This document shows positions 351-60,288 of a stretch of 64,000 nt of DNA, piece after piece. The position numbers and the translations under genes were made by a program. Within the stretch, counting starts at the first letter, position 1, and each line of letters opens with the position of its first letter. Source of the stretch: a bacterium (GTDB lineage: Bacteria; Patescibacteriota; Minisyncoccia; Phycocordibacterales; UBA918); assembly GCA_043719295.1 (NCBI GenBank), contig JAYSUD010000001.1:189799-253798 (forward strand), given 5' to 3'. The notes beneath the pieces are model-generated. The model made no database searches. It saw only the letters and a program-made list of their open reading frames with translations, and had not been told where the DNA came from.

Positions 351-1409
351 ATGGAATACGCAATATTTAAAATCTTGATACCTGCAATTTTATCTTTTGT
401 GATAGGAATTATCATTACCCCACTACTTACTCACTATCTCTATAAACATAGAGTATGGAAAAAAGAAGGGGGCAAGACCGCGTTAAACGGAACTGTTGCA
501 ACTGAGTTCAACCGACTGAAAGGAAATGACGAAACAAAGACCCCACGAATGGGTGGCATCATTATTTGGGGGAGCGTATTTCTGACCGTACTGCTTCTTT
601 TTATCCTTGAGCGACTTTTCCCACAAACCCTCTTTGCAAATCTTGATTTCTTCAGTCGTGAACAAACATGGATACCCCTTTGTACCTTGGCAATTGGTGC
701 AGGCATCGGATTCCTGAACGATTATTATGATGTTCACCATGATGGAAAAGGAATACGTTTGTCAAAACGGATTCTCATGATTTCAATTCTCTCTGGACTT
801 ATAGGTTGGTGGTTTTACTACAAACTTGGCGTATCACACATCGGTATTCCATTTGATGGTTCGTTATACGTTGGAATACTTATTATTCCATTTTTCATCC
901 TCCTTACTAACGCACTTTATGCAAGTGGCGTTATTGACGGTATTGACGGACTTTCAGGCGGAGTTTTTACCTCAATCTTTTTAGCCTATGCAGGAGTTGC
1001 AGTCATTCAATCACAGTTTGAGATTGCTGCGTTGTGTGCAACTATCGCTGGGGCAACATTAGCGTTTACTTGGTTTAATGTTCCACCTGCTCGTTTTTGG
1101 ATGACGGAAACAGGGTCTATGGCACTAACCCTCACACTCTCAGTTATTGTACTCATGACTGACAACCTTGGTGATGGCCACGGCATCTCATTACTCTTTA
1201 TTATTGGACTTCCATTGATTGCAACTGTTGCTTCAAACGTTTTACAAATTTCATACCGCAAAGCAACCGGCAAGAAACTATTTAGAATTGCGCCACTTCA
1301 TCATCACTTTGAAGCTATTGGATGGCCCTCGTATAAGGTGACCATGCGCTATTGGATTATTAGTATTATGTGCGCGTTGCTTGGAGTTATCTTAGCTAGT
1401 ATTTTTTAG
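351..1409 (+). CDS. mraY: phospho-N-acetylmuramoyl-pentapeptide transferase
   Basis: 10-TM protein with D-D-x-D-G and PLHHHFE motifs typical of MraY. Confidence 0.9.
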   Translation: MEYAIFKILIPAILSFVIGIIITPLLTHYLYKHRVWKKEGGKTALNGTVATEFNRLKGNDETKTPRMGGIIIWGSVFLTVLLLFILERLFPQTLFANLDFFSREQTWIPLCTLAIGAGIGFLNDYYDVHHDGKGIRLSKRILMISILSGLIGWWFYYKLGVSHIGIPFDGSLYVGILIIPFFILLTNALYASGVIDGIDGLSGGVFTSIFLAYAGVAVIQSQFEIAALCATIAGATLAFTWFNVPPARFWMTETGSMALTLTLSVIVLMTDNLGDGHGISLLFIIGLPLIATVASNVLQISYRKATGKKLFRIAPLHHHFEAIGWPSYKVTMRYWIISIMCALLGVILASIF

Positions 1410-1432
1410 TAAAACATGTTTATAAAACTTCA

Positions 1433-1530
1433 GATACGAGGCGTGGAGGAGAATAAGGACGAGGCGTACGGGGAGTACGTTGAGTTCTTGGTCGACGACA
1501 ACAACGAAGTAGGTGAGGGTTTTAAACTTG
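1433..1530 (+). repeat. divergent or partial copy of interspersed repeat family 2 (cgaggcgtac / gtacgtt blocks)
   Basis: Shares the cgaggcgt(ac) and gtacgttg blocks with copies at 55561, 60168 and 63291. Lies in the mraY-ftsW spacer. Confidence 0.35.
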
Positions 1531-1534
1531 TTTT

Positions 1535-2632
1535 ATGCAAAAAGGAGTAGACAGAACGTTACTCGGAATAATCATTTTTTTAGTGGTTTTTGGTTTTTTT
1601 GTATTCTCATCTGCTTCTTTAGGACTTCTCGCACGTGATGGAGCAAACTTTTCTTCCGTTGCATTTAGTCAGGTTGTCTTTGGTATTATCGGTGGCGGTT
1701 TAGCGATGTTTTTAACAAGCCAACTCTTTTATCGAAATTGGCGAAAGTACGCATTTCACATTTTTGTTGCAACAATACTTCTTGCGCTTGCAGTACACTT
1801 GCCATACATAGGAAAAGAGTACGGTGGAGCACGACGATGGATTGAGATTTTTGGTTTTTCGTTTCAACCTGCTGAACTCCTAAAAATTGGGTTTATTGTG
1901 TATATGGCAACCTGGCTCTCTGGGATACAGAAAAACATTCACACCTTTAAACAAGGAACATTACCGTTCCTTGGACTTACTTCTATTGTGGGGGTAGTAA
2001 TGCTCATCCAACCTGACACCGACACATTCTTAATCATGGCTACTGCAGCAACGGCAATGTTTATTACTGCGGGAGGGAGGTGGCGTGACGTTGCATTGAT
2101 GTTTTTTGGATCTATACTTCTTCTTGCACTCTTAGCACTTTCTCGCCCATACATCATGGACCGTATCATGACGTTTTTTAATCCAACGTTAGATCCTCAA
2201 GGAAAAAGTTACCAGATACAACAATCACTTATTGCCATTGGTTCAGGAGGGTTTACGGGAAGGGGATTTGGACAAAGTATTCAAAAGTTTGAATACCTTC
2301 CTGAACCAATTGGTGACTCGGTGTTCGCAGTATATGGAGAGGAATTTGGATTTTTAGGTAGTTCACTCTTAGTAATGCTCCTTGCATTTTTTACCTTCCG
2401 TGGATACAAAATTGCTTCACATGCAACAGACTTGTTTGGGATGCTGTTAGTTGTAGGGTTCATGACACTTATAGTTCTTCAAGCATTTTTAAACATCGCC
2501 GCCATGCTCGCCCTAGCCCCCCTAATGGGCCTCCCACTCCCATTCATAAGCCACGGCGGAACGGCCCTCTTAGCCACACTAGCCTCAGTTGGTATTGTAC
2601 TGAACGTATCAAAGTATCAGAAGAAGAAGTAA
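1535..2632 (+). CDS. ftsW: SEDS-family peptidoglycan glycosyltransferase FtsW/RodA
   Basis: Multi-TM SEDS protein. Its position after mraY in the dcw context favours FtsW. Confidence 0.85.
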   Translation: MQKGVDRTLLGIIIFLVVFGFFVFSSASLGLLARDGANFSSVAFSQVVFGIIGGGLAMFLTSQLFYRNWRKYAFHIFVATILLALAVHLPYIGKEYGGARRWIEIFGFSFQPAELLKIGFIVYMATWLSGIQKNIHTFKQGTLPFLGLTSIVGVVMLIQPDTDTFLIMATAATAMFITAGGRWRDVALMFFGSILLLALLALSRPYIMDRIMTFFNPTLDPQGKSYQIQQSLIAIGSGGFTGRGFGQSIQKFEYLPEPIGDSVFAVYGEEFGFLGSSLLVMLLAFFTFRGYKIASHATDLFGMLLVVGFMTLIVLQAFLNIAAMLALAPLMGLPLPFISHGGTALLATLASVGIVLNVSKYQKKK

Positions 2633-2670
2633 GCCACAGAGCGCAAGCGACAATGGCGAACTTCCGTCCC

Positions 2671-2955
2671 GATTTTTGCTGTTGACAGAGAACCTCACTA
2701 TCAGCCTCAGCGTTGCTGTGCTGATAGTAAGGTTCAGCAAAAATCGCTGGACGTCTCGAACGCTGAGATGACTCGACGGCTTGCAGTGATTAGAATTTGT
2801 TCCCAATTTTCTGCTTCTGACCAAGAACAATACTTACTGCCTCAGCTTTGCTGTGCAGAAAGTATTGTTCAGCAGAAACCGCTGGAACTCTCCAACGCTC
2901 AGCTAACTCCTGCTCTTTCTCAACTTCTGGAACTCTCCAACGCTAAAATGACTCC
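2671..2955 (+). repeat. tandem pair of REP-like imperfect hairpins (family 1): conserved loop ctcagcKttgctgt, conserved 3' tail gctggaactctccaacgct (x2)
   Basis: Hairpin A at 2671-2745 (gatttttgctg...cagcaaaaatc, about 30-bp stem). Hairpin B at 2809-2877 (ttctgct...gcagaaagtattgttcagcagaa). A third copy at 23075-23150 has a different stem sequence with the same loop and tail. Confidence 0.6.
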
Positions 2956-3087
2956 GTCTATATAACAAATATTGCTCATTTTTAAAAAAGATGTACGATT
3001 AAGTACAAATAGTTGTTCAAAGTTGTAGGAGATAGTTACAAACTTATTTTAATACCTATGAACAGAATGCCCGAATGGAGCGACTAC

Positions 3088-6000
3088 ATGACTTTTTTAA
3101 TATTGAAAAAAAGTGCGAGCTGTATGCTCGCGCTTTTTGTTTTATTGAGTCCAGTTTTAGTTAGCGCAGTAGAATCAGAAACGACAGTTTCTACTGAGGA
3201 AACATATAGCGTTGTTGAATCAGAAACTGATAGTGCGGCAGTGACTCAAAGTAAGGCAACAAAAGAAACTCCTCCTGCAGAGGCACCTCAACCAGTATCA
3301 CAAAGCTCTTCTGCAACTTCAGAAACTCAAGCGGGTACTTCGTATCTTTACGACCCTGGTGCACGCTCTGATTTCCCTAAAGTAAATACCCAAGATGGAT
3401 CAATGCAGTTTAGTTATGATGTTAAAGTGCCGCAAGGCAGAGGAATTACGACTCCCTCGCTTACTCTCAGTTACAATAGCAATTTTACCGCTCAAAACAG
3501 TGCCTTTGGTTACGGGTGGTCCATTTCTATTCCGAGTATCAAAAGAATGAATAAACAAGGTACAACGTACCTTTATTCAAAAAACTTTTTTGAATCGAGT
3601 TTTGATGGTGAACTAGTGCGTGTTTCTACATCAACATATTTACCCAAGGTTGATACAGGCAGTTATAGAAAATACAATTTTTCAAACAATGTTTGGACTA
3701 TTACAGAAAAAGATGGAACAAAATATATTTTTGGATCTACCACACAATCACGACACAATAACCCTGCAAGTAGCACGCAAATCTACGCATGGAATCTTGA
3801 AGAAGTTCGTGATACCAACAGTAATTATGCTTCGTATACCTACTTCAAAGATCAGGGACAAATTTACCCAAATACTATTACCTATTCAGGAAATAATGTA
3901 ACTCCGGGAGTATTTTCAGTTGTCTTCAACCGTCAAGCAAGAGGGGACGACATAGTGTCATACGAGACAGGGTTTATTGCAACTACTTCATTTAGAATAA
4001 ATCAAATTGAGACACAGCAGAGTAGCTCATGGCTGCAAAGATATGACCTAGGGTATACAACAGGAGCAAATAGTAATCGATCACTACTTTCTTCTGTCAC
4101 TCAATCAGGGAGAGATGAAAGTGGTGTAGTGTCTAGCTTGCCTTCAACAAATTTTTCTTATGAGACACAAACTACAGGAGATAAGCAGTGGACTACTGAT
4201 GCAAGCTGGACTATTCCTGAAAACTTTATAACTGGCTATGCAAACTTAGACGAAGGCGTCCGTGATTTTGATATTAACGGTGACGGACTCATCGATATTA
4301 TTAAATATAAAAATGCGAAGATTTCTCCTACATACGCAGCAACACCTTCACAAACCATCTGGCTCAATACAGGAACTAGTTGGGCTACAACTTCAACGTG
4401 GACACTACCTCAACCCATGGCAACAACCACACCATTTGCATTTGTAGGGTACGAACCAAGTCTGGGTATTAGTAGTGTCGATCTTGGCGCACGTTTTGCT
4501 GACGTTAATGGAGACGGATTCACCGATATTCTTTGGGGATATAAAACAGACACAACAGGAATGCCGTACCCGTATAATCATAATTTTGGAAAGGTGTATC
4601 TTAACAACAAAACAAATGGATTTACTGAAAGTGCTAATTATGCTCTCCCAACAGACATTCGATTTGTAGTACAAAATAAAGACGGAGGGGTACAAATTGC
4701 TGACATTACGGGAGACGGATTGCCAGACTTACTAAAATCATCCAAGATTGTAGCAAATGGAAGTACAACAATTTCAAAAAAAGTGTACGTAAATAATGGT
4801 GTCACATGGGTAACTGCTTCGACATCATGGAGTATTCCTGAGCTCATTTTAGATCAAGGAGAAGATGCGGGAACGAGGGTTATTGATATAAACGGCGACG
4901 GCCTTGCCGATATACTTCGTAATACCGCAAGTGATTACAATCAAGGAACGTTGCAAGTAAATAAAACATATCTTAACACTGGTTACGGATGGAAAGCAGT
5001 TTCAGATACTTGGGATTCACCAGTGCCATTTGTGTATCTCTTTCAAACACACGGAGTTCAATCGCTTTCACCTCGTTTTGTAGATATTAACGGGGATGGA
5101 CTTATAGACATCTATTCAAATCAAAGTGGATCAATCTATTCAAACACCTCAACCCATATAAACACTGGTGAAGGATGGTCTGATCAATCATCAACTTGGA
5201 CTGAGCCACAACTACTGAAGTTTACGTACGCAAACAATGGAACATGGGGTGCAGAGACAGGTGTTCGCTTGATGGACTTAGACGGCGACAACATGATCGA
5301 CTTTGTGAAGTCTGGTCCAAATAACACATACCCAACTGACAGTCACGAGAAAAAAGTGATGATCCATAATGCTACTGTCCCTGATTTGCTTAAAACAGTT
5401 GAGTACCCTGAAGGTGGATTGCTTCAGGTAAGTTACAAACAGTCTCCTTTGTACAAAAACAGTCTTAATAAAAATCGGAATCCGTTACTTCCTCGTGTTC
5501 TTAATACTGTATTTACACTTACATACGATGACAAAGTAACAACACCCTACACAGACACCTACTCGTACGACGGTGGTTCATACTTTTTTGGCTCATCAAC
5601 AAACAGGTACTTTGCAGGATTCGGAACTACTACTGTTGTTGATTCAATTGGAAACATTACAAAATCATATGCTCATCAAGGTAATACATCACAATCCCAA
5701 CTTGGTGAATTTCAAGACTCTGAAGTAAAAATCGGAAAGCAGTATAGTATCGAAAAGTTTGATGTTAACAAAAATCTGTACGCACGAACTATCTCACAGT
5801 GGGAAAGCTATAACCGTGGTAGTGGCGCGACATACGTCTATAAGACAAAGGATCTCACACAGCAATATGATGGTGATACCGACCACAAAGACACAGTAGT
5901 AATTTACAACGTAGGAGCAGCAGCAGGTAACCTAATTACACTCATTGAACTTGGAGAAGTAACTTCAACAACAACTACTGGTGCATTTGTTGACACAGGT

Positions 6001-9000
6001 ACTGACCGAAAAGATACAACATACCAATACGCACAAAATGCTGGACTTACTATTATTGGCCTACCTTCTAAAGAAACGGTAACCAATCAATCTGCAGTCA
6101 AAGTGAGAGAAACAAACTACTACTACGACAATCAAGTACTTGGCACTGCAACTCTTGGTAACGTAACAAAGAAAGAAGACTGGGTTGTTGGTTCAACATA
6201 CGTCAATACCAGAAGCACCTATAACAGCTATGGCCTTCCTACAAAATTGATGAACACCAAAGGGGCGACGACTTCACTTAAGTACGACACACTTAACTTA
6301 TATCCGACAGTTATATCTAATCCGTTGTTGCAAAGTGCAACAAGCTCTTTTGACTATACCAATGGAAGAGAGAAAACTTTATTAACTCCAAACAATGTTC
6401 TCTTTGAGACAAAGTTTGATGGACTTGATAGAGTAATCCAAACAAAAAAACCAGATCCTACTACAGGAGTAAGTACCATTGCAAGCGAACTAAGTTACGG
6501 AACTACGAGAAATGCATTTAATGTATTTTCTACATCCAACGTCACTCCTTCTGTAGCAGTACTTGAATATCAATACCTTGATGGCTTTGGAAGAAAAATT
6601 CAAAATCGAAAAGAAGCTGAAACAGCAGGTCAATACGCCGTATCTGATTACACGTACGGAAAAAACGGCAGGCTCATAAAAGCATCTCTCCCGTACTTTA
6701 GTAATGGTACAAATAAAACTTCACCAACATCACAAATAAACTTATATACTTCATACAAATATGATCCACTTGAGCGCGTAAGTGCTGTGGTGACAACTAT
6801 TGGTACAACATCAACTGCCTATGACCAATGGAGACAAACTGAAACAAATGCAAAGGGAAAACAAAAAGTGTATGTGTATGATGCATACAATAACCTTGTT
6901 GCTGTAGAAGAGAAGGAAGGTGTAAATACCTATACCACAAGTTACCTCTACGACCTTAATAAAAACCTTACCAAAGTTACTGACTCACTGGGGAACATTA
7001 GAAATGCCACCTATGACGGACTCAGTCGTCGCCTTACACTCCAAGATCTTCACGCAACTGCAGATACCACCTTTGGATCCTGGACATCAAGCTACGATAC
7101 AGAAGGGAACATAACTTCAATTACGGACCCTAAAGCTCAAGTTATCAATCGCACCTACGATACACTAAATAGACAACTCACAGAAAACTACACAGGGACT
7201 GCAGGTACAGAACTTACTTATGCGTACGACACCTGTACTAAAGGAATAGGATTCCTCTGTACTGCCAAAAACACTGATGCCACAACTACTTACAAATACA
7301 ATCCTGCCGGGGGAGTGTATGTACAAAATGAAACAGTTGGTAGTACAAAGTACACAGCTACAACAACCTACACACTAAGGGGCGACGTAAGTACTTCAAC
7401 TTATCCAGATCGCGCACAAGTTGTGTATCGATTCGACGGAGCTGGTAACATTACTGCAATAGGAGAAAAAGAACTCACGGGTGCACTTCATGACATAGTA
7501 ACCAACATTGACTACGGTCCACATGGACAAATCATCTACCGTGAAAACGGTAACGGTGTGTATACTAATTACGTGTACGACGCTAACGCCCTCTACAGAC
7601 TCAAAGCACAGAAGACAACCGCTGTTGCAGGCACCGGAGGAAGTGGTGTAGATCAACAAGCACTTGAGGCTGAGCTTATCTTCACACTTCCCCAAAGTAC
7701 AACAACTTTAAGTGATTATACGGGGAGTTTTGCCACCTCAAGTACTGAGGCGACATCAAGCGCAGTTGCTACTGATTTTGAAACTGTGGAAACTTCCGCT
7801 ACTTCGTCACAGAGTACAAAAGCAATAAACCAAGAAATTAAGTCTGCTACAACTACAACACAAATAAAAAAAGATGTCGCCACAACTACACAAAACAGCA
7901 AAGTTGACGTACCAGAATCAGAACGCATCAAAGATGTTCAGGGTGCAAAAATTGCGTCGTCACTCTTAGGTAAAAACTTCCTTGAACGTGCAGAGCTAAA
8001 AGCTCAAGCGATGTCTTTAGTTAAAATTGGAACTTCAACTCCAATAGTTGACAGTAAATTTGGTATAACTCTTGAAATTCAAGCAATTGAAAAAATAGAA
8101 AATGGGGTACAAGTATTTATCCGTGCATGGAAAAATGGAAAACAACTTGGCTTCGGGCCAGATGGTTCTATTGAAATTGAGCGTATTCGTATCATCAATC
8201 CACCGATTCTCGTACGACGCAACGGTCAACTTGTAGAGGACCTCAAGGTAGCACTTGAAGAGTCAGTACTCCATACTGTTGCAAGTATCGGACAAGAAAA
8301 CACATCAATTCTTGCAGGTTCAATCGGGAACACAACTACAACAGTCTATCCTGCTTCAGGTGCAATAAGTCCAGTTGATGGACGATGTTCAGAAGACAGA
8401 TACCCTAGTTGGACACAAGTTAGAGACAGCCTAAATTGTCGAATTAGTAGTGTTGTTGAAGCAAACGGCAATCTTTATAACACACTAGGTACCGGCAGTG
8501 GTGCTTCTAATTATGCAATCACAAGAAACTATACGTTTTTTGATACAAGTGCTATCCCTGATATGGATGCAATTTACTCTGCGACGTATTCGCTTTTTGG
8601 GAATGGACCAGGCGATACAAGTTTGGCAGGTACAGTGCAACGGGTTCATGTAGTAACTTCAAATTCTATAAATTCAAGTAACATCTACACCTCAGATTTT
8701 CCGAGTGTAGGGTCAGTATCATTAGGTGAATCTGACAATTCCTGGGACACTGCAAACTATAACGACTTCCCACTAAACGCAACGGGGATGAGTGCTGTAT
8801 CAAAAGTAGGAATTACAAAATTTGCTATCCGCGGTCACTATGACTTGATGGATATTGTTCCCGACAACGCAAACGAATTCAGTGTTGGTTTCTACTTTGC
8901 AGATCAAGCCGGAACAACCAATGATCCAAAACTCATTGTGCAACACACTGCAAACGCAATTCCACTTCCACCTATATTGCTTAGAACCGAAGGAGTTGCT

Positions 9001-10902
9001 AACCCAACAGGAGTTCAAGATTCTACACCAGATTTTTCTGCAATCTTCAGAGATAGCGATGTCGGTAATGTGGCTTCAGCATACCAATTACAAGTAAGTG
9101 CATCATCAACAAACTGGAATACTCTTGTATGGGATTCACTCCAAACAACCCTTAACCCAACAGTAGCTATTGGTGCCCGAAGTCAAGAAATCGCGTACGG
9201 AGGAGGAGCTTTAGTTCCAAGCACTAATTACTACTGGCGAATTAAATTCTTTGACAACCTCAATACCGCAGGGTCATGGAGTACCACAACCGCAAGCTTC
9301 TCACTTGCAAACTTTATTGGCATTAAACATCTTATCTATAATTACGACGTACTTGGTAACATCACCTCTATTAGCGATGTTACAAATCCACTAAGTGCAA
9401 CCGCTAACGTGTATACCTACGACGACCTCAATCGATTACTAACGTATGCGACAGCACCGGTAACAGTTACTCAAACAGCAGATCCACTCTTACCAACAAT
9501 TGCACTTGGATCAAACACCAATCAAGAAGCATACACATACAACTCCCTTGGCAACCTCCTAACCAAAACAGGACAAGGAAGTTACATATACGCTGGTAAC
9601 ACAGCCTCTTTGTACGCAAATCCTCACGCGCCAACAAGTATAAACAGCGTGTCACACACCTACGACCAAAACGGTAACCTCACCAACAAAGGTACCAACA
9701 CCTACTCATGGCACTATACCAACCGTATGGCAGGCTCTGTTGAAGGTGTAAACACCCTCACATACACATACAACACCCAAGGCCAACGTATCTCAAAGAC
9801 AAAGGGAAGTACAGTAACTCGGTATCCTTTCGTGAATTACGAAGTACGAGGAAGTACCACAACCAAACAAGTGTTCTTAGGGGATACACTGGTAACTACA
9901 ATAGAAAACAACGGCAGCTCCTCCAAAGCCTACCAAGTCCACCCTGACCATCTTGGAAGTACACTCTTTACCACCACAGAACAAGGGAAGGTGGCACAAC
10001 TTTTGTCATACAAACCGTATGGAGAAGAGACTATGGGGACGAGTTCTAATAGAGTACAGAGGCACTATATTGGACAGACCAGTGACAGTGAGACAAGTCT
10101 TGATTACTTGAATGCGAGGTACTATGATCCGAGGAAGGGGGAGTTTATTTCACAGGATCCGGTGTTTTTAAGTAATTCACAGAATCTTGCAAATCCGCAG
10201 TCATTAAACAGTTATAGTTATGCTGAAGGGAATCCTATTAATCGGAAGGATCCAAGTGGGTTGGCTACTTGGCAAGGATCTAAAAAGGCAATCTTAAAAA
10301 GTACAGTAAAGATTCTCCAGAGTTATGAGTCACTTCTTCGAAGTGCAAAAGCCGATCCGGTACGTACAGCTAAAGCTGTGGGAAAGTCTGCGGGGAGTTC
10401 GGCTGTAAATGTACTATTTAATTCTGGTGGAATGACTTATGATGCAGCAGCAGCAACAAGAGACAGCATAAAGAAATTCGGAAACGGTTCTGATGCGGTT
10501 CAAGATCAAATGATTGGGAATGGAGCTGTATTTGTGGTAGGTTTCTTTCTTCCGGGAAAGAATTTAAAGAGGATCCCAGATGATGCCTTAGTGGTTAGAG
10601 GAGGTGGTCCTTCCAACTTCGCCCCAGACAAGTTCAGGATTGCAGAGCATAAAAACGCTCCTGGAGTAGTCGGATTCTCAGTGCAATGTGCTTCAGGAAT
10701 GTGTGCAAATGACCTTGCAAGTAATCTACCAAATCAACAGGTTGCACAAACAACTGTTGCACAAATTAGGGCAGCGGGTGGAGACGTTGTTGCTACACCT
10801 GGCCACGGCCAACATTCAACCGTCACAGGGTTAGATGGGCAAGCAGCAAGTCAAGTGCAGTGGGGATTCTTTACAAACCCTAATCCTTGGGATGGCTCAT
10901 GA
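3088..10902 (+). CDS. secreted giant polymorphic toxin: signal peptide, SpvB/TcB N-domain, FG-GAP/VCBS-like DxNGDG repeats, an FN3-like insert, RHS/YD repeats, an RHS repeat-associated core, a DPSGL cleavage motif and an unclassified C-terminal toxin domain (alternative start at 3013)
   Basis: SpvB-like PSLTLSYNSNF...GYGWSISIP motif. Six DINGDGLIDI-type repeats. Many YxYDxxGRL RHS repeats. YQVHPDHLGS...YKPYGEE...ARYYDPRKGEFISQDPV core. PINRKDPSGL followed by a 212-aa tail. Confidence 0.85.
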   Translation: MTFLILKKSASCMLALFVLLSPVLVSAVESETTVSTEETYSVVESETDSAAVTQSKATKETPPAEAPQPVSQSSSATSETQAGTSYLYDPGARSDFPKVNTQDGSMQFSYDVKVPQGRGITTPSLTLSYNSNFTAQNSAFGYGWSISIPSIKRMNKQGTTYLYSKNFFESSFDGELVRVSTSTYLPKVDTGSYRKYNFSNNVWTITEKDGTKYIFGSTTQSRHNNPASSTQIYAWNLEEVRDTNSNYASYTYFKDQGQIYPNTITYSGNNVTPGVFSVVFNRQARGDDIVSYETGFIATTSFRINQIETQQSSSWLQRYDLGYTTGANSNRSLLSSVTQSGRDESGVVSSLPSTNFSYETQTTGDKQWTTDASWTIPENFITGYANLDEGVRDFDINGDGLIDIIKYKNAKISPTYAATPSQTIWLNTGTSWATTSTWTLPQPMATTTPFAFVGYEPSLGISSVDLGARFADVNGDGFTDILWGYKTDTTGMPYPYNHNFGKVYLNNKTNGFTESANYALPTDIRFVVQNKDGGVQIADITGDGLPDLLKSSKIVANGSTTISKKVYVNNGVTWVTASTSWSIPELILDQGEDAGTRVIDINGDGLADILRNTASDYNQGTLQVNKTYLNTGYGWKAVSDTWDSPVPFVYLFQTHGVQSLSPRFVDINGDGLIDIYSNQSGSIYSNTSTHINTGEGWSDQSSTWTEPQLLKFTYANNGTWGAETGVRLMDLDGDNMIDFVKSGPNNTYPTDSHEKKVMIHNATVPDLLKTVEYPEGGLLQVSYKQSPLYKNSLNKNRNPLLPRVLNTVFTLTYDDKVTTPYTDTYSYDGGSYFFGSSTNRYFAGFGTTTVVDSIGNITKSYAHQGNTSQSQLGEFQDSEVKIGKQYSIEKFDVNKNLYARTISQWESYNRGSGATYVYKTKDLTQQYDGDTDHKDTVVIYNVGAAAGNLITLIELGEVTSTTTTGAFVDTGTDRKDTTYQYAQNAGLTIIGLPSKETVTNQSAVKVRETNYYYDNQVLGTATLGNVTKKEDWVVGSTYVNTRSTYNSYGLPTKLMNTKGATTSLKYDTLNLYPTVISNPLLQSATSSFDYTNGREKTLLTPNNVLFETKFDGLDRVIQTKKPDPTTGVSTIASELSYGTTRNAFNVFSTSNVTPSVAVLEYQYLDGFGRKIQNRKEAETAGQYAVSDYTYGKNGRLIKASLPYFSNGTNKTSPTSQINLYTSYKYDPLERVSAVVTTIGTTSTAYDQWRQTETNAKGKQKVYVYDAYNNLVAVEEKEGVNTYTTSYLYDLNKNLTKVTDSLGNIRNATYDGLSRRLTLQDLHATADTTFGSWTSSYDTEGNITSITDPKAQVINRTYDTLNRQLTENYTGTAGTELTYAYDTCTKGIGFLCTAKNTDATTTYKYNPAGGVYVQNETVGSTKYTATTTYTLRGDVSTSTYPDRAQVVYRFDGAGNITAIGEKELTGALHDIVTNIDYGPHGQIIYRENGNGVYTNYVYDANALYRLKAQKTTAVAGTGGSGVDQQALEAELIFTLPQSTTTLSDYTGSFATSSTEATSSAVATDFETVETSATSSQSTKAINQEIKSATTTTQIKKDVATTTQNSKVDVPESERIKDVQGAKIASSLLGKNFLERAELKAQAMSLVKIGTSTPIVDSKFGITLEIQAIEKIENGVQVFIRAWKNGKQLGFGPDGSIEIERIRIINPPILVRRNGQLVEDLKVALEESVLHTVASIGQENTSILAGSIGNTTTTVYPASGAISPVDGRCSEDRYPSWTQVRDSLNCRISSVVEANGNLYNTLGTGSGASNYAITRNYTFFDTSAIPDMDAIYSATYSLFGNGPGDTSLAGTVQRVHVVTSNSINSSNIYTSDFPSVGSVSLGESDNSWDTANYNDFPLNATGMSAVSKVGITKFAIRGHYDLMDIVPDNANEFSVGFYFADQAGTTNDPKLIVQHTANAIPLPPILLRTEGVANPTGVQDSTPDFSAIFRDSDVGNVASAYQLQVSASSTNWNTLVWDSLQTTLNPTVAIGARSQEIAYGGGALVPSTNYYWRIKFFDNLNTAGSWSTTTASFSLANFIGIKHLIYNYDVLGNITSISDVTNPLSATANVYTYDDLNRLLTYATAPVTVTQTADPLLPTIALGSNTNQEAYTYNSLGNLLTKTGQGSYIYAGNTASLYANPHAPTSINSVSHTYDQNGNLTNKGTNTYSWHYTNRMAGSVEGVNTLTYTYNTQGQRISKTKGSTVTRYPFVNYEVRGSTTTKQVFLGDTLVTTIENNGSSSKAYQVHPDHLGSTLFTTTEQGKVAQLLSYKPYGEETMGTSSNRVQRHYIGQTSDSETSLDYLNARYYDPRKGEFISQDPVFLSNSQNLANPQSLNSYSYAEGNPINRKDPSGLATWQGSKKAILKSTVKILQSYESLLRSAKADPVRTAKAVGKSAGSSAVNVLFNSGGMTYDAAAATRDSIKKFGNGSDAVQDQMIGNGAVFVVGFFLPGKNLKRIPDDALVVRGGGPSNFAPDKFRIAEHKNAPGVVGFSVQCASGMCANDLASNLPNQQVAQTTVAQIRAAGGDVVATPGHGQHSTVTGLDGQAASQVQWGFFTNPNPWDGS

Positions 10903-11282
10903 AAATAAAAAACTTAAGTGATTTGCGTAATGCAGATATAAAATTCAAATTAGAGAAAATACCTACAAACGAAATTATTATAAAAAGCGTAGATAATTTT
11001 TGCGACGGTCCACTAAGTGGAGAATGCACTTGGCGGAACAAAGAATATTATTATCAGTGCTTTGATCAGATTGATCCACATACAGACGAAGATCTTCGCC
11101 CAAGGAAGTATCTTTTGCTTCATTTAACTCCTCAACAATTTAACGAAAATTCTCTACTAGAAAAACTCTATGCCAAAAGTGCAGACAGTGATTCTCTGAG
11201 AAATGAATATCTATTTGAGTATGAAAAATCTACTCCACAAATAATACGTAGAGAACAGATTATCGCTTGGTTTGAGGAATGA
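10899..11282 (+). CDS. putative cognate immunity protein of the RHS toxin
   Basis: Its ATG overlaps the toxin TGA stop (ATGA), which suggests translational coupling. Small cytoplasmic protein with no recognisable domains. The position is typical for RHS immunity genes. Confidence 0.5.
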   Translation: MKIKNLSDLRNADIKFKLEKIPTNEIIIKSVDNFCDGPLSGECTWRNKEYYYQCFDQIDPHTDEDLRPRKYLLLHLTPQQFNENSLLEKLYAKSADSDSLRNEYLFEYEKSTPQIIRREQIIAWFEE

Positions 11283-11411
11283 ACAAAGTGTCGATAGAAT
11301 AGACGCAGCAATAGCTGATAGTTATATGACACCAGCAGGAGACAGTCGCGCAATGGGGCATAAAAGGGGATAAGTCCAATAAAAACTCAAATATCATGGT
11401 CTAATAAATTA

Positions 11412-12083
11412 ATGCCTCGCATGAACAGAGTTGCCGTAGGTAACACTGTGTATCACGTACTTAATCGTGCAAATGGTCGTGCTCAAATCTTTCACACTGA
11501 TGCAGAATACCAACACTTCGAATCACTCCTTTTAGAAGGTGTGGAGCTTATCGGTATGAGAATACTCGCATACTGCATCATGCCAAATCACTGGCATCTT
11601 GTACTCTATCCACATAAGGATGGAAATATGAGTGAGTTTATGCGGTGGGTTACTACCACACATGTTCGACAACGACGGACACAAACAAAAAGTGTCGGTG
11701 CAGGTCATTTGTATCAAGGTACATACAAATCGTTTCCAATTGAAACCGATCACCATTTACTCACCGTGATACGCTATGTTGAACAAAATCCATTACGAGC
11801 AAAGCTTGTGACTCAAGCAGAACAATGGCAATGGTCATCTTTATATAGAAGGGAGAGAAATAATGACGAAGATAAAAAGTTTCTGTCAGTACTTCCAACA
11901 GAATTACCAGAGAATTATCTTGAATCAGTTAATACTATTCTTTCTGAATCAGTTCTAACCAGCGTTCGTCATTCTCTCACCAAGGGTACTCCGTATGGTG
12001 GAGATATTTGGACAAGGGAGATGATTGATAAGTATAATTTAGGGAGTACCATACGAGGTCCAGGGAGACCAAGATTAGATTAA
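11412..12083 (+). CDS. IS200/IS605-family HUH tyrosine transposase-like protein (RAYT-like, COG1943) with a C-terminal extension
   Basis: HUH motif CIMPNHWHLVLYP and a catalytic-Tyr region HLYQGTYKS. No TnpB partner. A single gene flanked by repeat-rich DNA. Confidence 0.75.
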   Translation: MPRMNRVAVGNTVYHVLNRANGRAQIFHTDAEYQHFESLLLEGVELIGMRILAYCIMPNHWHLVLYPHKDGNMSEFMRWVTTTHVRQRRTQTKSVGAGHLYQGTYKSFPIETDHHLLTVIRYVEQNPLRAKLVTQAEQWQWSSLYRRERNNDEDKKFLSVLPTELPENYLESVNTILSESVLTSVRHSLTKGTPYGGDIWTREMIDKYNLGSTIRGPGRPRLD

Positions 12084-12208
12084 TATTACAACATGAATAT
12101 TGCAGAAATAACGGACGTATCCCTGTTACCTCAAAAATAGAAATCTACCCTCCTCTGTTTTAGTTGCAACTATAGATTGTTGTAGTGCTATACTTATTTC
12201 AATAATTT

Positions 12209-13327
12209 ATGATCAAGATTGTTCTAGTTGGAGGGGGGAGTGGAGGGCATTTTTATCCGCTTATTGCGGTAGCTGAGCAAGTGGCAGCGTATAAAAAAAG
12301 AGGACTTGATGTAGAGATGTACTACATGGGTACAGAGGCCTATAACCAGGCTGACCTTGATGCCAATGGGATTTCTTTTATCTACTGTCCATCGGGAAAG
12401 AGACGAAAGTATTTTTCACTCTTAAACTATTTTGATATTTTTAAAGTTATCTATGGTTTTTTTGTAGCGGTTTATAAACTGTACATTCTCTATCCTGATG
12501 TTGTCTTTAGTAAGGGAAGTTATACGAGCGTTCCGGTAACGCTTGCTGCATGGGTGTTACGTATTCCGGTTGTTGTACACGAATCAGACACACGTCCCGG
12601 AAGTGCAAACAAACTTGAGTCACGGTTTGCACGATACGTTGCAATTTCTTTTGAAGAAGTAGCACAGTACTTTCCTCAAGACAAAATTGGACTTACTGGA
12701 ATCCCACTTCGTAAAGCGTTTGTAGAAAAAATTGATAATCCTGTTATGGAGCTTGGGCTACCTTCTGACAAACCACTCATCTTTGTTACCGGTGGTTCTT
12801 TTGGTGCACAGCGACTTAATAACCTCATTTTAGAATCGCTTAACGAACTGTTGCCTTCATACGTCATACTCCATCAAACAGGGGAGACCAATGCAAAAGA
12901 AGTGCAGAGTTATGCGTCAACTATTATTAATGATACACAACTCCTTGCGCACTACTTTGTAAAAGGTTCTTTAACAGCGAGAGAAATGAACCTTGCTTCA
13001 AGTGTTGCGTCACTTATCATCTCAAGAGCGGGAACGGGAAGTATCTATGAAATAGCTCAAAAAGGGAAGCCGGCAATTTTGATCCCAATACCCGAAGCAA
13101 TTAGCCACGATCAAAAGACAAACGCATATGCGTATGCACGAACGGGAGGTGCGTCGGTCCTTGAGGAGGGGAATTTAACTGACGGTTTGCTTGCTTCTGA
13201 AATTAGCCGTATTATGGAAAACCAAGAGGTATACGATTCTATGCAGAAAAATGCACTCGCATTTGGACATACTGACGCGAGCCTAAAGATTGCTGATACC
13301 CTAATTGGGATCGCTCAAGAACACTAG
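12209..13327 (+). CDS. murG: undecaprenyldiphospho-muramoylpentapeptide beta-N-acetylglucosaminyltransferase
   Basis: GGGSGGHFYP N-terminal motif and GT28 family architecture. dcw context. Confidence 0.9.
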   Translation: MIKIVLVGGGSGGHFYPLIAVAEQVAAYKKRGLDVEMYYMGTEAYNQADLDANGISFIYCPSGKRRKYFSLLNYFDIFKVIYGFFVAVYKLYILYPDVVFSKGSYTSVPVTLAAWVLRIPVVVHESDTRPGSANKLESRFARYVAISFEEVAQYFPQDKIGLTGIPLRKAFVEKIDNPVMELGLPSDKPLIFVTGGSFGAQRLNNLILESLNELLPSYVILHQTGETNAKEVQSYASTIINDTQLLAHYFVKGSLTAREMNLASSVASLIISRAGTGSIYEIAQKGKPAILIPIPEAISHDQKTNAYAYARTGGASVLEEGNLTDGLLASEISRIMENQEVYDSMQKNALAFGHTDASLKIADTLIGIAQEH

Positions 13328-13330
13328 TCG

Positions 13331-13460
13331 GACCTGCATAAATGGCACATTTCTTCGTTATACTGCATAAAATAACACTCATCGTACCCAACGTACGCCT
13401 CGCATTATTTCACTTGTATGCCTCGAACTGCACTCGTTACTGTAGGTCCTTGGAAGTTAA
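13331..13460 (-). repeat. interspersed repeat family 2 copy (reverse orientation)
   Basis: Its reverse complement reads acgagtgcagttcgaggcatacaag...aataatgcgaggcgtacgtt...aacgaagaaatgtgccatttatgcagg, nearly identical to the copy at 55561. Confidence 0.6.
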
Positions 13461-22520: not shown

Positions 22521-22934
22521 ATGATGAACAAAATTTTTAATCATCCAATATGGAATACACATGCACTACTCTTTGCACGAGTACTCATGGGAGGAATGTT
22601 TTTACTTGCAGGAATCAACAAAGCTTCTGGTATTGATGGCACTACAGGCATGATTGGAGCTGCAGGACTTCCAATGCCATTGGTACTTGCATGGCTAGCG
22701 GCGCTACTAGAGATTGCAGCTGGAGCAGCAATCATCTTAGGTAAATATTTCAAAGAGGCAGCTATTTCTCTTGCAGTATTTACATTTGTCATTAGCTTCA
22801 TCTTCCACGGGCCAAACAGTTGGGCTGAGAACATGATGCAACAACTTGTGTTCACAAAGAACATGGCGATTGTAGCTGGTTTGTTGTTTATGGCAGCACA
22901 TGGTGCTGGAAAGACTTGGAAAATGAGCAACTGA
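22521..22934 (+). CDS. DoxX family membrane protein
   Basis: 137 aa, 4 TM helices, N-terminal DoxX signature. Confidence 0.8.
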   Translation: MMNKIFNHPIWNTHALLFARVLMGGMFLLAGINKASGIDGTTGMIGAAGLPMPLVLAWLAALLEIAAGAAIILGKYFKEAAISLAVFTFVISFIFHGPNSWAENMMQQLVFTKNMAIVAGLLFMAAHGAGKTWKMSN

Positions 22935-23074
22935 GCGTAGCGATTATTGCGAATTTACCTTCTTACAGAAGCTGTCCGCTCATTGGATACTTTATTTCGT
23001 TACACTCATAAAGTCTCTCAATGAGTCTTGCGAAAGTGTCCCACACTTTCTCACCCAGTTTTCGCGCTGATCCA

Positions 23075-23150
23075 GAGTTCGTTTCAATGCCTCAGCGTTA
23101 GCTGTGCATTGAATAGAACTCAGCGGAAACTGCTGGAACTTTCCAACGTT
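23075..23150 (+). repeat. REP-like hairpin family 1 copy (stem gagttcgtttcaatgc/gcattgaatagaactc, loop ctcagcgttagctgt, tail gctggaactttccaacgtt)
   Basis: Same loop and 3' tail as 2671-2955, with a different, self-complementary stem sequence. Confidence 0.6.
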
Positions 23151-23187
23151 TAGGTAAATCGATCTGTTGTAAAAGCACTCAACATAG

Positions 23188-23218
23188 AAAAAGCCCTCTT
23201 GCGAGGGCTTTTTTCTAT
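23188..23218. terminator. bidirectional rho-independent terminator
   Basis: gaaaaagccctcttgcgagggcttttttc. Confidence 0.6.
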
Positions 23219-37228: not shown

Positions 37229-37345
37229 CAGAAATGGATGCAAATTCGAGGCGTGCAAATAAAATGAACCGAGGCGTACGTATAGTACGACGAGGGTCAT
37301 TTTATGTAGCACAACGAAGAAGTTGCGCCATTTATGGAAGCCCTA
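37229..37345 (+). repeat. interspersed repeat family 2 copy (partial) that overlaps and supplies the stop codon of the 37343-38530 gene
   Basis: caaattcgaggcgtgcaaat...gaaccgaggcgtacgta...aacgaagaagttgcgccatttatggaagccctagttga. The same 3' block, gccatttata...gccctagttga, recurs at 51015-51050. Confidence 0.5.
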
Positions 37346-38530
37346 GTTGAAGGTGATAATATCTTCGATGTCATCCTCATCCTCATCCAACTCCTCTGCG
37401 ATAGCTTCGATAATCTCATCCTCATCGTCTGATGAAACTTTGATTCGTTTTGTTGTTCCATCTTCAAATTCAACTGTTGCAAGAGCTTGACCATCCTCAA
37501 TGTCAACTTTGATTTCTTCCATCTCTTGATACTCAAACTCGATGATGTCCTCAACTTCATCTTCATCAATATTAAGTTCATCTGCTACTTCTTCAATGAT
37601 TTCTGCCTCCTTGTCTTCTTCAATGGTAAATTCTTCATCGTCACCATTTTCATATTCTACTTCTACAGTAGCTTCCCCGTCTTCAATTGAAGCGACAATC
37701 GATTCAATTTGATCACTTTCATCATCCTCGTCTTCTTCTTCTTCATCCTCGTCTTCGTCTTCGTCTTCATCACTATTAGATGAAATAAATTCTATATGTG
37801 AAAGAATAGTTGCTTTAGATTGTCCAAGTGAAACAGCTACAGCATCGATAATTTTGAGTTTTGAGTCTCCAGCAACATCCAGAGTCTTTTTTGTACCGTC
37901 GGTGTAAATGATTTTTACATCAGCCTTACTTCCTGTATACGCCGCAGTAATTATTTTAAATCCAGAAGTATTTGGCGCTGTTACGGTAGGTGTTGTAACT
38001 GGCGTTGGATTTACCACTACTGGTGCTATTGGTACAACTGCACCCACAACAGGTTTCTTCTTAAGTACATCAACAGGATAGATATCGTTTGGATATGCTG
38101 CAAAGAATTCATTCAAGAGTGCCTTTGTTGCAGGACCTACAGCTCCGACCGGTTTAAGTCCAAATCGAGTTTGCAAATTCTTGATTGCCTCTTCAGTTTT
38201 CGGTCCAAATAACCCAGAAGATACTCCGTATGGATAGATTTCTTTGTCAGTTGCAAGTAGTTTTTGAATCTTCTTAATATCACTATTAGTTTCACCAAGA
38301 ACTATGTTTTGCGTTAAAACACTTTTTATCGAAGCCCCAAGTACTGTGGGTTGCGGTGCACCCCCTTGTACACTTGCAAGTTTTGCAAATTCTTCTCGGA
38401 GTGACTGTATCTCTTTAATAATAGCGTCCATTCGCACAAGAGAAGCTTGAACATCTGCAGCATGAGTTGATGGAGTTATTGCCACAACTAAAGCTACAGA
38501 GAAAATAAATAATGATAAGTAGTAACGCAT
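37343..38530 (-). CDS. secreted, highly acidic protein with a PG_binding_1-like domain and two repeated acidic modules
   Basis: Signal peptide, IKKIQKLLA...GLFGPKTEEAIKNLQTRFGL peptidoglycan-binding motif, DE-rich tracts, and the repeats TVEVEYENG...EEVADELNIDEDEVEDIIEF and TVEFEDG...IEAIAEELDEDEDDIEDIITF. Confidence 0.6.
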   Translation of the reverse strand: MRYYLSLFIFSVALVVAITPSTHAADVQASLVRMDAIIKEIQSLREEFAKLASVQGGAPQPTVLGASIKSVLTQNIVLGETNSDIKKIQKLLATDKEIYPYGVSSGLFGPKTEEAIKNLQTRFGLKPVGAVGPATKALLNEFFAAYPNDIYPVDVLKKKPVVGAVVPIAPVVVNPTPVTTPTVTAPNTSGFKIITAAYTGSKADVKIIYTDGTKKTLDVAGDSKLKIIDAVAVSLGQSKATILSHIEFISSNSDEDEDEDEDEEEEDEDDESDQIESIVASIEDGEATVEVEYENGDDEEFTIEEDKEAEIIEEVADELNIDEDEVEDIIEFEYQEMEEIKVDIEDGQALATVEFEDGTTKRIKVSSDDEDEIIEAIAEELDEDEDDIEDIITFN

Positions 38531-38675: not shown

Positions 38676-39788
38676 TTACGCAGCGTCTTCTGCATCTTCC
38701 AATTCATCTGCAGCATCTTTTGCCTTGTCTTCTGCTTCATCAGCTAAGTCCTCTGCTTCACTCCAGTCTTCGTCATCAAATGCATCTTCTGCATCTTCTA
38801 ACAGTTCTTTTGCGTCATCAAGCTTGTCTTGTGCGTCGTCTACATCTACATCATTGTTTGCATCATCGATATCTTCTTGTACAGCGTCAATTTCATCTTC
38901 TGCATCAGAAATTGCATCTTCTGCATCATCTTCTTCATTTGCGTCTTCGTCTTCATCAAGAGCATCGCCAAGTTCTTCTTTGATATCATCAACAAGTGCG
39001 TCTTCTACATCGTCTAGATCCATATCAAGTTCATCAGCTACCTCTTCAAGGACAGCAGATTGTGAAGTTGAACTGACAGTAACAGTGTAGTCGTCGTTGT
39101 CATAGTTGAAAGAAACAGTAGTTTTACCATTTTCGATTTCAACTTCTACTTCATACTCATCATCTTCATCTTCATCTTCGTCCTCGTCATCTTCATCTTC
39201 GTCCTCATCATCTTCATCTTCGTCCTCATCCTCATCTTCGTCTTTATCTTTGTCTTTCTTGTGATCTTTACAGAACAGTCCCCACGCACCTACTTTTTCC
39301 TGTTCACATAAATTTTTCTGAACTTTTTTTGCGATACCAGGTGCACGGAGTAATCCCTCGGGATATGTCTCACCAAATCTTGCCTTAAGATATTCTTCAA
39401 GCAGTTTTTTAGTATCACCGCTTACTTCACCAGTTGGAGCAAGTCCATTCTTCTTTTGGAAACGTTTTACCGCTTCCTTAGTAAGGGGTCCATAGTATCC
39501 AGTAATTTTTCCTTCTGGATAAATAGTTTGATCAGAAGCGAGTATTTCTTGAATTTTCTTGATGTCCGCATCACTCATTCCTTCTCTAAGACCATCTTTA
39601 AGTGTCTCACGTACTTCACCTTTAATCTTTGCAAGTTCAGCTCGGAGAACCTCAACTTGAGCCATTAATGACTTAAGCGTCTCTAAAAGAGACGATACAT
39701 TTGTTGTCGTGGTCGCTGCTTGTGCTTGTGGCGCCTGTACCATAACGCATAACGCGATGGCAAATACTATTCCTGCTAATTTTTTCAT
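38676..39788 (-). CDS. secreted, highly acidic protein with a PG_binding_1-like domain (paralog of 37343-38530)
   Basis: Signal peptide, coiled coil, IKKIQEILA...GYYGPLTKEAVKRFQKKNGL, a (DE)n run of about 45 residues, and the module TVSFNYDNDDYTVTV...LEEVADELDMDLDDVED. Confidence 0.6.
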   Translation of the reverse strand: MKKLAGIVFAIALCVMVQAPQAQAATTTTNVSSLLETLKSLMAQVEVLRAELAKIKGEVRETLKDGLREGMSDADIKKIQEILASDQTIYPEGKITGYYGPLTKEAVKRFQKKNGLAPTGEVSGDTKKLLEEYLKARFGETYPEGLLRAPGIAKKVQKNLCEQEKVGAWGLFCKDHKKDKDKDEDEDEDEDEDDEDEDEDDEDEDEDEDDEYEVEVEIENGKTTVSFNYDNDDYTVTVSSTSQSAVLEEVADELDMDLDDVEDALVDDIKEELGDALDEDEDANEEDDAEDAISDAEDEIDAVQEDIDDANNDVDVDDAQDKLDDAKELLEDAEDAFDDEDWSEAEDLADEAEDKAKDAADELEDAEDAA

Positions 39789-44961: not shown

Positions 44962-45033
44962 GGTCTCATCGTCTAACGGTTAGGACGCAGGATTCTCATT
45001 CCTGCAATCGGGGTTCGATTCCCCGTGAGATCA
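44962..45033 (+). tRNA. tRNA-Glu (anticodon CUC)
   Basis: Manual cloverleaf: 7-bp acceptor stem ggtctca/tgagatc with one G-U pair, D-stem gtct/ggac, anticodon stem cagga/tcctg, loop ttCTCat, T-arm cgggg-ttcgatt-ccccg. No encoded CCA. Confidence 0.8.
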
Positions 45034-45068: not shown

Positions 45069-45189
45069 TGTTCGTGATCTCACGAGTAACAGTGTGGGAC
45101 ACTGTTACGTGGGAATCGAAAAGCGGCTTGAGATACTTTATGAACGAAGTGAAATAAAGTATCCAAACGCTGCACAGATTCTGTAAGAA

Positions 45190-45208
45190 TTGATTCCCCG
45201 CGAGATCA
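45190..45208 (+). repeat. direct repeat of the tRNA-Glu 3' end (gattccccgYgagatca); candidate att-site scar
   Basis: 18 of 19 nt identical to tRNA bases 54-72. Lies about 150 bp downstream. Between the two sits an inverted copy, cgtgatctcacgag, and a perfect hairpin, gtaacagtgtgggacactgttac. Confidence 0.4.
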
Positions 45209-50842: not shown

Positions 50843-50937
50843 GGGCTGCAGAAATGAGTGTAATTCGAGACGCGAAGTAAAAAATATGCGAGCCCTACTT
50901 GCTGTAGGGTGAACAGATTTTTTATGCACGCAACGTT
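50843..50937 (+). repeat. divergent copy of interspersed repeat family 2
   Basis: gggctgcagaaatgagtgtaattcgagacgcgaag...atgcgag... plus local hairpins. A further 3'-end fragment at 51010-51050 abuts the multicopper oxidase (MCO) stop codon. Confidence 0.45.
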
Positions 50938-51043
50938 AAACTATGACTAAACGTCATTGTTTAAAAGGTTGTCGATATTTTGAAGAAATATCATACAGCC
51001 TGAACAGTTCCTGTATGGAAGAAGTACGCCATTTATACAGGCC

Positions 51044-55552: not shown

Positions 55553-55560
55553 TATGCTCA

Positions 55561-60287: not shown

Positions 60288-60288
60288 T

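Follow-up and report, generated by a model that had tools for sequence, protein, structure and literature searches.

A probable family of mobile palindromic repeats with constant loops and covarying stems in a Parcubacteria genome

The repetitive extragenic palindromic (REP) sequences of Proteobacteria, and the larger arrangements known as REPIN and BIME (bacterial interspersed mosaic element), are imperfect palindromes that lie outside genes, mostly just downstream of them. They occur in multiple copies, as tandem or inverted clusters and as mosaics with other modules, their hairpins are kept by compensatory change, they persist for a long time in a lineage, and they are found in genomes with a gene for a REP-associated tyrosine transposase (RAYT), an enzyme of the Y1 HUH type (Bertels and Rainey, 2011, PMC3116915; Di Nocera et al., 2013, PMC3733652; Quentin et al., 2018, PMC6006769). 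All these properties are shared by an element of approximately 145 nt found in a 64-kb stretch of contig JAYSUD010000001.1 (the window, from here on): it forms pairs in the window and on contig L113 and a cluster on contig L003, and the genome encodes a RAYT-related Y1 HUH protein. The element is probably a non-autonomous family of interspersed palindromic repeats, selfish or semi-domesticated, in a Parcubacteria lineage (Patescibacteria, Candidate Phyla Radiation or CPR), functionally analogous to REP, REPIN and BIME and to the hairpin miniature inverted-repeat transposable elements (MITEs).

Other features set the element apart. A REP sequence has 20–40 nt, whereas here a hairpin of approximately 90 nt is part of a 145-nt unit, and REP sequences have a conserved GT[AG]G (or CGTC), whereas neither GTAG nor GTGG is present at either foot of the hairpin in alignment A7 (nine full copies aligned with MAFFT, with no fitting to structure). 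As for CGTC, the 3' foot has it in the GGACGTC variant alone and has ACTC in the other; these bases are paired or variable and form no unpaired tag. In a REPIN the REP arms are the conserved part, whereas in this element the loop, the bulge and the flanks are constant and the stems vary. Unlike the gene of a REPtron, the Y1 gene is not flanked by the hairpin elements. The host, a CPR bacterium, is also different, and full-text searches of the literature brought up no account of REP- or MITE-type repeats from CPR/Patescibacteria.

Hairpin MITEs (the Correia element of Neisseria, ERIC and RUP) and the palindrome-associated elements (PATEs) derived from IS200/IS605 are small, non-coding, intergenic sequences with a long hairpin, which are often co-transcribed and affect mRNA stability. 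They have terminal inverted repeats and target duplications, or the ends of a parent insertion sequence (IS), and their copies are near-identical. The element resembles them in being small, non-coding and intergenic and in folding as a long hairpin, and differs in that neither a parent IS nor terminal repeats nor a target duplication was found and in that its copies differ throughout the stem and yet remain paired; neither TnpA nor TnpB of IS200/IS605 is encoded in the window. The element works like REP, REPIN, BIME and hairpin MITEs but lacks the GT[AG]G, the REPtron arrangement, and the terminal inverted repeats, target-site duplications or parent IS by which these are recognised.

Structure of the unit and covariation of its stems

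Three full copies of the element, all on the + strand, and one solo 3' flank are present in the window (Table 1). Elements A and B stand in tandem behind ftsW, A starting 7 nt past the stop codon (2632), and element C follows doxX, its 5' flank opening on the last base of the stop codon (TGA 22932-22934). The original prediction had placed three hairpins within 2671-2955 and at 23075-23121, and the sequence there is as it described, with all three on this strand. Two covariance models were used: R1, built from the three window copies and run with filters off, and R2, a longer model that takes in the 5' flank. Matches to these models have E-values of 1e-23 to 1e-32, and across the 64 kb R1 found no match beyond the three copies and the solo flank (match 2913-2956). 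Copy counts given here cover the 64-kb window and short contigs.

The comparison with further copies (alignments A5-A7) defined a unit that is larger than the one first described, since it includes a conserved 5' flank, AGCGYAAGCGACWATTNYGAAYTT, which is degenerate in element B. This flank is followed by a basal helix of (C/G)GTCC with GGAC(G/C) in which both sides covary, the pair being CGTCC/GGACG in A, L003b and L006a and GTTCC/GGAAC in B, L003m and L113a/b. Above it there is a 2-nt bulge and then an outer stem of 8–11 bp (TTTCTGCTG/CAGCAGAAA), which is fairly conserved among copies and has a few compensatory changes; next come a 9-nt bulge of conserved sequence in the 5' strand, CTGACCNAGA, and a variable inner stem of approximately 15 bp. 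The hairpin is closed by a conserved apical mini-hairpin, CCTCAGC-KTT(A)-GCTGTG, whose 4-bp stem covaries once to CGAC/GTCG and once to GAGC/GCTC, and the unit ends with a conserved 3' flank, TCTCSAACGCTYAGATANCTC. The claim that the stems are entirely different between copies is therefore correct for the inner stem and not for the outer one. The first half of the conserved 3' tail that had been reported (GGAAC or GGACG) is no tail but the 3' strand of the basal helix, and pairs with GTTCC or CGTCC where the 5' flank ends. For the flank motif GCTGGAACTYTCCAACG, 4 matches with <=3 mismatches were found where 0.19 are expected, and its duplication behind element B, noticed from the start, was found again; this solo flank is a remnant or a partial duplication.

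Element C has an additional peculiarity. Its hairpin had been recognised but the interruption of the unit had been missed: a 96-nt member of another repeat family (X, described below) splits the element between the 5' flank and the hairpin, a junction that is continuous in uninterrupted copies, and the overall span of 22934-23165 includes this foreign module.

The hairpins are far more stable than dinucleotide shuffles of the same sequences (z=-3.8 to -5.8 folded as RNA, and -5.1 to -8.2 for full units folded as single-stranded DNA, ssDNA). The three window copies alone gave 33 pairs with RNAalifold, 10 of them with compensatory changes, and the nine copies of A7 extend this result: 94.2% of the pair cells hold standard pairs, compared with 36–43% when the partners are slid by 1–3 columns, both sides have changed in 23 of the 35 pairs, and the covariation score was reached by none of 500 shuffles. 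This agrees with the original prediction of a REP-like family with a conserved loop and covarying stems. Conservation is uneven along the unit, the mean major-allele frequency being 0.59 in the inner stem, 0.90 in the apical region and approximately 0.78 in the flanks. Mismatches on the + strand show no strand bias, with G·T to A·C ratios of 7 to 7 and 7 to 4 in two counts; this argues against an RNA read from one strand, which would tolerate G·U and not A·C. Two further helices were considered and rejected. A small tail hairpin (CTGGA/TCCAA), which was predicted by RNAalifold and taken into R1, has no covariation and only 85% pairing and is replaced by the basal helix, and a terminal closing helix (AGCG/CGCT) is 64% paired, also without covariation.

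Copies, insertion sites and competing explanations

Thirteen copies are known: the three of the window (plus the solo flank), seven on contigs L003-L006, two on L113 and a short variant on L055. A strict loop-plus-flank pattern had no match in 185,579 GTDB species representatives, so the canonical form is absent from these genomes, and matched four metagenome contigs, on which the seven copies of L003-L006 lie. In L003, two direct copies, one of them 5'-truncated, and one inverted copy are found within 420 nt and adjoin a member of another repeat family; with this X module the cluster lies within 620 nt. Contig L113, which carries the closest relative of FtsW (91% amino acid identity), has two tandem copies directly after ftsW. 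In one Mb of GTDB sequence around 80 homologous Y1 genes, R2 found a single variant with a short hairpin (L055 8117-8201, - strand) in a metagenome-assembled genome (MAG) labelled Saccharibacteria, located between an intrinsic terminator and the stop codon of a 403-aa gene whose C-terminus is TyrRS-like by eye, and L006 2150-2235 resembles another short variant. Both short variants keep the 5' flank and the basal helix, which indicates that the family is broader than its long-hairpin form. Copies beyond the window were found when sought, with their stems paired, so that both tests by which the original prediction could have been refuted (no further copies, or unpaired stems) turned out in favour of it.

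The forms in which the element occurs include tandem pairs (window and L113), an inverted pair and a 5'-truncated copy (L003), a solo flank, and a copy with a nested foreign module (C). The two copies of the L113 tandem pair are 93% identical, and those of L004 and L006b are 87% identical while their surroundings are at the baseline of unrelated sequence, approximately 55%. Both pairs point to recent copying.

Homologues of FtsW and of the Y1 protein bear names like Candidatus Parcubacteria, Pacebacteria, Kaiserbacteria and Taylorbacteria, which places the window in an uncultured bacterium of the Patescibacteria (CPR); its G+C content is approximately 40%. In relatives with 82–83% FtsW identity (L007-L011), murG begins 22–23 nt after ftsW and is followed by gltX, and the models found no match at these syntenic ftsW-murG loci. 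In the window, ftsW (1535-2632) and murG (12209-13327) are 9.5 kb apart. The situation behind doxX is similar: relative L010 has only approximately 55 nt and a terminator, and in the window the 5' flank, the nested 96-nt module, the hairpin and the 3' flank are inserted ahead of the terminator. By this comparison of orthologous sites, the copies are insertions relative to the relatives. Logan contigs assembled from short reads of this organism come to an end within repeat modules (L001 at 8217 and L002 at 2745), as is expected for sequences that are repeated in a genome.

Six copies (A, B, C, L113a/b and L055) adjoin the 3' end of a gene in the sense orientation, and two of them, C and L055, lie between stop codon and terminator. 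L004 (9 nt from the stop of a - strand gene, 470..1966) and L006a are antisense, L006b has divergent genes on its two sides, and in L003 both orientations occur. The placement in 3' untranslated regions (UTRs) that had been proposed therefore describes the window copies, after ftsW and doxX, but not the family in general.

The original prediction had left open whether the element is a structured RNA or a hairpin recognised by a protein. Insertions relative to relatives, the presence of both orientations, the truncated and nested forms and the lack of a G·U over A·C bias favour the second possibility at the DNA level, that is, a mobile repeat with a protein-recognised hairpin rather than a dedicated RNA. 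New copies arise by insertion or duplication in intergenic DNA, mostly a few bases from gene 3' ends, and only those lineages of copies that keep the hairpin persist, so that the stems change through compensatory substitution while the unpaired parts (5' flank, 9-nt bulge, loop of the apical mini-hairpin and 3' flank) remain constant. The hairpin would be extruded in ssDNA, for example at a replication fork, where a structure-specific protein would read the constant bulge, apical loop and flanks, and then cut and rejoin the DNA. The most plausible class of enzyme would be that of the Y1 HUH transposases, to which the RAYT/TIRYT-like protein belongs whose gene lies in one insertion with A and B (TIRYT being the inverted-repeat-associated relatives of RAYT). 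Copies located between a stop codon and a terminator would be co-transcribed, and may secondarily stabilise the 3' end of the mRNA.

Several points weigh against a repeat that is simply mobile. The six sense copies lie only 0–7 nt past the stop codon. The window and L113 each have tandem copies behind ftsW, although the 4-fold degenerate sites of the two ftsW genes are only 42% identical; at this divergence neutral sequence would be randomised, and the constant motifs may have been either retained in place by selection or renewed by re-insertion or gene conversion. The shared site behind ftsW and the six copies past stop codons may equally reflect a function for the host. A search for target-site duplications, terminal inverted repeats or a conserved target sequence yielded none of them: on inspection of the sequences, each copy has different bases ahead of its 5' end and the units are not flanked by direct repeats, and no fixed upstream tetranucleotide turned up at the 9 junctions inspected. 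A transposition intermediate, moreover, is not visible from sequence alone.

The same observations can be read in terms of RNA. A functional structured RNA of Patescibacteria, either a cis-acting 3'-UTR element or a small RNA, with a protein bound to the apical loop and bulge, with stems selected in the transcript and with repeated recruitment to new sites, would explain the strong covariation, the sense copies close behind stop codons (C and L055 also ahead of a terminator), the tandem copies behind ftsW in two genomes despite near-saturation of their synonymous sites, and the retention of the 5' flank and basal helix in a distant MAG. This explanation is rather unlikely, given the antisense copies, the copy between divergent genes and the mixed orientations of L003, the orthologous sites of relatives that have no element, the truncated, solo-flank and nested forms, and the balance of G·U and A·C; the element also has neither a promoter nor a terminator of its own, and matches no Rfam family. 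With Rfam 15 at gathering thresholds only a tRNA passes in the whole window, and permissive scans of both loci returned only chance or terminator-type matches. An intermediate proposal, which we regard as unlikely, is that the unit is more than selfish DNA, namely a conserved structured element specific to Patescibacteria and active directly behind stop codons, either as a protein-binding RNA or as the substrate of a domesticated Y1 HUH enzyme; it is based on the fact that the element has stayed behind ftsW while synonymous divergence reached saturation, and on the 5' flank and basal helix that are kept in the distant MAG. As RNA, its constant apical loop and bulge could bind a protein that controls 3'-end stability or translation termination, and as DNA it could be served by a vertically inherited, domesticated enzyme that recognises a conserved loop with a variable stem, nearer to Rep-type origins than to canonical REP sequences.

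Much less probable is a relation to the attC sites of gene cassettes or to the sites of other site-specific recombinases. These too are long imperfect hairpins with a variable paired centre and extrahelical bases on one strand, located just after open reading frames (ORFs), but the foot of the hairpin has (C/G)GTCC and GGAC(G/C) in place of the R''/R' core (RYYYAAC...GTTRRRY), the apex is variable in attC and is the most conserved part here, no integrase was found among the window ORFs scanned, and the neighbours are core genes (ftsW, doxX and the 403-aa gene of L055) and not cassettes. Finally, similarity by chance, mere duplication in place or the decayed remnant of a coding sequence might be suspected from the adjacency of A and B and from the small ORFs that overlap them (2609-2830, - strand, and 2768-2965, + strand). 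This reading is refuted by the E-values of the model matches and by the copies found in other metagenomes and at loci that are not related; for the overlapping ORFs no matching protein family was found, and indels of 1 nt (in the loop) and 2 nt between copies break the reading frames. Collections of phages and plasmids held no sequence similar to the element.

Table 1. Features of the 64-kb window that are related to the element and to its insertion sites
Feature	Position	Strand	Evidence or content
Element A, full unit	2640..2782	+	R2 146 bits, E=1.6e-32; ssDNA fold gives the same structure, z=-5.1
Element A, parts	5' flank 2640-2664; hairpin 2665-2753; 3' flank 2754-2782	+	
Element A, basal helix	CGTCC 2665-2669 with GGACG 2749-2753	+	
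Element B, full unit in tandem with A	2779..2917	+	R1 121 bits, R2 117 bits; fold z=-5.4
Element B, parts	degenerate 5' flank 2779-2798 (4-nt deletion); hairpin 2799-2888; 3' flank 2889-2917	+	
Element B, basal helix	GTTCC 2799-2803 with GGAAC 2884-2888	+	
Solo 3' flank (AACTTCTGGAACTCTCCAACGCTAAAATGACTCC), without hairpin	2922..2956	+	repeat family D4, 73%; covariance model E=0.028; nhmmer E=6e-4
Element C, 5' flank (AGCGTAGCGATTATTGCGAATTTAC)	22934..22958	+	exact flank-pattern match; nearly identical to the L113 flank
Nested X-family member, 96 nt (CTTCTTACAGAAGCTGT...TTGCGAAAGTGTCCCACACTTTCTCAC)	22959..23054	+	inverted-repeat match to 45128-45189; also in L003 and L005
Element C, hairpin (about 23055-23139) and 3' flank (23140-23165)	23055..23165	+	R1 105 bits, R2 92.5 bits
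Bidirectional terminator after element C	23186-23215		
9.5-kb insertion between ftsW and murG, not in relatives	2633..12180		holds A, B, toxin gene, 131-aa ORF and Y1 transposase
RHS/Tc-type toxin gene, 2629 aa	3013-10902		SpvB, TcdB middle, FG-GAP and RHS core domains (Pfam, NCBIfam)
Y1 HUH tyrosine transposase, 223 aa	11412..12083	+	motifs NHWH (HuH) and YVEQNP (Y)
Degenerate terminal inverted repeats of the Y1 gene	about 11364-11404 and 12084-12124		29/45 matches

The neighbouring Y1 HUH transposase

The 9.5-kb insertion that holds elements A and B also contains, 8.5 kb from the element, the only copy in the window of a Y1 HUH transposase gene, which is intact and full-length. Its protein matches Pfam Y1_Tnp (E=6e-16) and scores 64.7 bits with the NCBIfam model REP_Tyr_transpos (REP-associated tyrosine transposase) against 22 bits with that of IS200; as the cut-off of the former is 80, the protein is a relative and not an equivalog. 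Its sole match in the PDB is 4ER8, the TnpA-REP of E. coli, and in its motifs, NHWH and YVEQNP, it agrees with class 2 of Quentin et al. (2018, PMC6006769). The protein is related to the RAYT and TIRYT transposases. Homologues with 65–91% amino acid identity and a constant length of 223 aa are abundant in Patescibacteria, in varied genomic contexts and mostly on contigs of ~1 kb, which suggests repeats at both flanks.

The Y1 gene, considered apart from the hairpin family, corresponds to the TIRYT/TIRtron arrangement, in which the gene is accompanied by terminal inverted repeats (Di Nocera et al., 2013, PMC3733652). It shares with subclass 2.1 (Quentin et al., 2018, PMC6006769) a class-2 enzyme of about 223 aa with Y---NP and a C-terminal extension, as well as terminal inverted repeats of 45–56 bp that start with GGGGAT and the existence of gene-less derivatives; it is unlike it in that the repeats start with GGGGATAA, an inexact fit to the published consensus GGGGWSAS. 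In the window these repeats are degenerate, their 29 matches in 45 positions being equalled by the best of 1000 shuffles (mean 22), and in the L013 unit (9941-10728) they have 56 nt and are 80% complementary. At that locus, a 45-aa fragment of rpS9 is duplicated downstream of the intact rpsI, beside the Y1 insertion (L013 8824-9963), and looks like an insertion footprint. In L016/L017 the left end of the Y1 unit is tandemly triplicated.

It is possible, though rather doubtful, that this enzyme or a paralogue mobilises the hairpins. The Y1 protein is a candidate because it lies in the same inserted block, because Y1 enzymes prefer ssDNA hairpins, and because no other transposase was found among the window ORFs scanned. 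A number of results speak against the link. The Y1 gene has terminal inverted repeats of its own on either side, conserved throughout Patescibacteria, and in L016 (2882-3104 and 5597-5728) these ends form a gene-less mini-element made of the left and right repeats. No sequence relationship was found between these TIRYT/TIRtron ends and the hairpin family: a likeness between the 3' flank of the element (GCRGAAAC.GCTGGACGTCTCC) and the right end of the Y1 unit (GCAGAAATAACGGACGTATCCC) was considered and rejected, nhmmer giving no match at E<=100, and the 11-mer core shows no enrichment across the window, with 7 matches where 5.5 are expected. The Mb scanned around the 80 GTDB homologues yielded nothing but the single short variant, the models found nothing at the loci of Y1 homologues with 82–91% identity, and at no locus scanned was an element found within about 1 kb of a Y1 gene. 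The motif of the Y1 inverted repeats also has 13 matches in viral contigs, a number that by rough estimate does not exceed what chance would give for a 17-mer.

Among the other contents of the insertion, the 131-aa ORF beside the RHS/Tc-toxin-like gene may encode its immunity protein. The annotated TTG start of the RHS ORF at 3013 is probably too far upstream, and a terminator-like hairpin (3108-3138) lies inside its predicted N-terminal signal-peptide region.

Hairpin repeats in a streamlined genome

Another long-hairpin intergenic family, of about 125 nt, is more abundant in the window than the element (1437-1485, 13311-13450 on the - strand, 37233-37321, 50852-50960, 55560-55680, 60168-60305 and 63301-63412). 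Its consensus is ...GGACTT.CA.AAATGAGTGCAATTCGAGGCGTACAAG..GCGAGGCGTAC-loop-GTACGTTGAG...TGTGCCATTT..., the central stem CGTAC/GTACG has changed to CCTAC/GTAGG in one copy, and one copy is inserted between murG and gltX, genes that overlap in relatives. The third family, X, is found at 22959-23054 (+), 45080-45200 (-), L003 525-620 and L005 1-75, and has two hairpins, one of them with a conserved loop and a covarying stem (GAAAGYGTCCCACRCTTTC in one copy, GTAACAGTGTCCCACACTGTTAC in another). One of its copies lies just downstream of a tRNA (44962-45033) and one is nested in element C. Upstream of the element in L004, a long near-perfect hairpin (163-263; AAACGGTAGTTTACGTACTTAAG...CTTAAGTACGTAAACTTAC...) may represent a further repeat family. 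The top "direct repeat" families of the repeat scan are accounted for by very long Asp/Glu-rich low-complexity tracts in two adjacent proteins with a peptidoglycan-binding domain (37343-38530 and 38676-39788, both on the - strand).

CPR/Patescibacteria genomes have about 1 Mb, are streamlined and are generally regarded as repeat-poor. The 64-kb window holds at least 3 distinct families of long-hairpin repeats, and the genes of relatives are tightly packed at the insertion points. The surprise lies in how densely a streamlined CPR genome is occupied by families of hairpin repeats, and in the conserved Y1 family alongside, more than in the element itself. Short-read assemblies break at the same points, and the repeats are one cause of fragmented MAGs in this lineage; repeats of this type account for the fragmentation of CPR MAGs and could be used to mark strains.

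The element family is a clean natural case of compensatory evolution in a DNA or RNA hairpin, and its constant unpaired motifs point to the contacts that a protein recognising it would make. The RAYT/TIRYT-type Y1 family beside it is widespread and highly conserved in Patescibacteria, and if the link between enzyme and element is true, systems of the REP-RAYT type would extend to the CPR, with a different logic of recognition.

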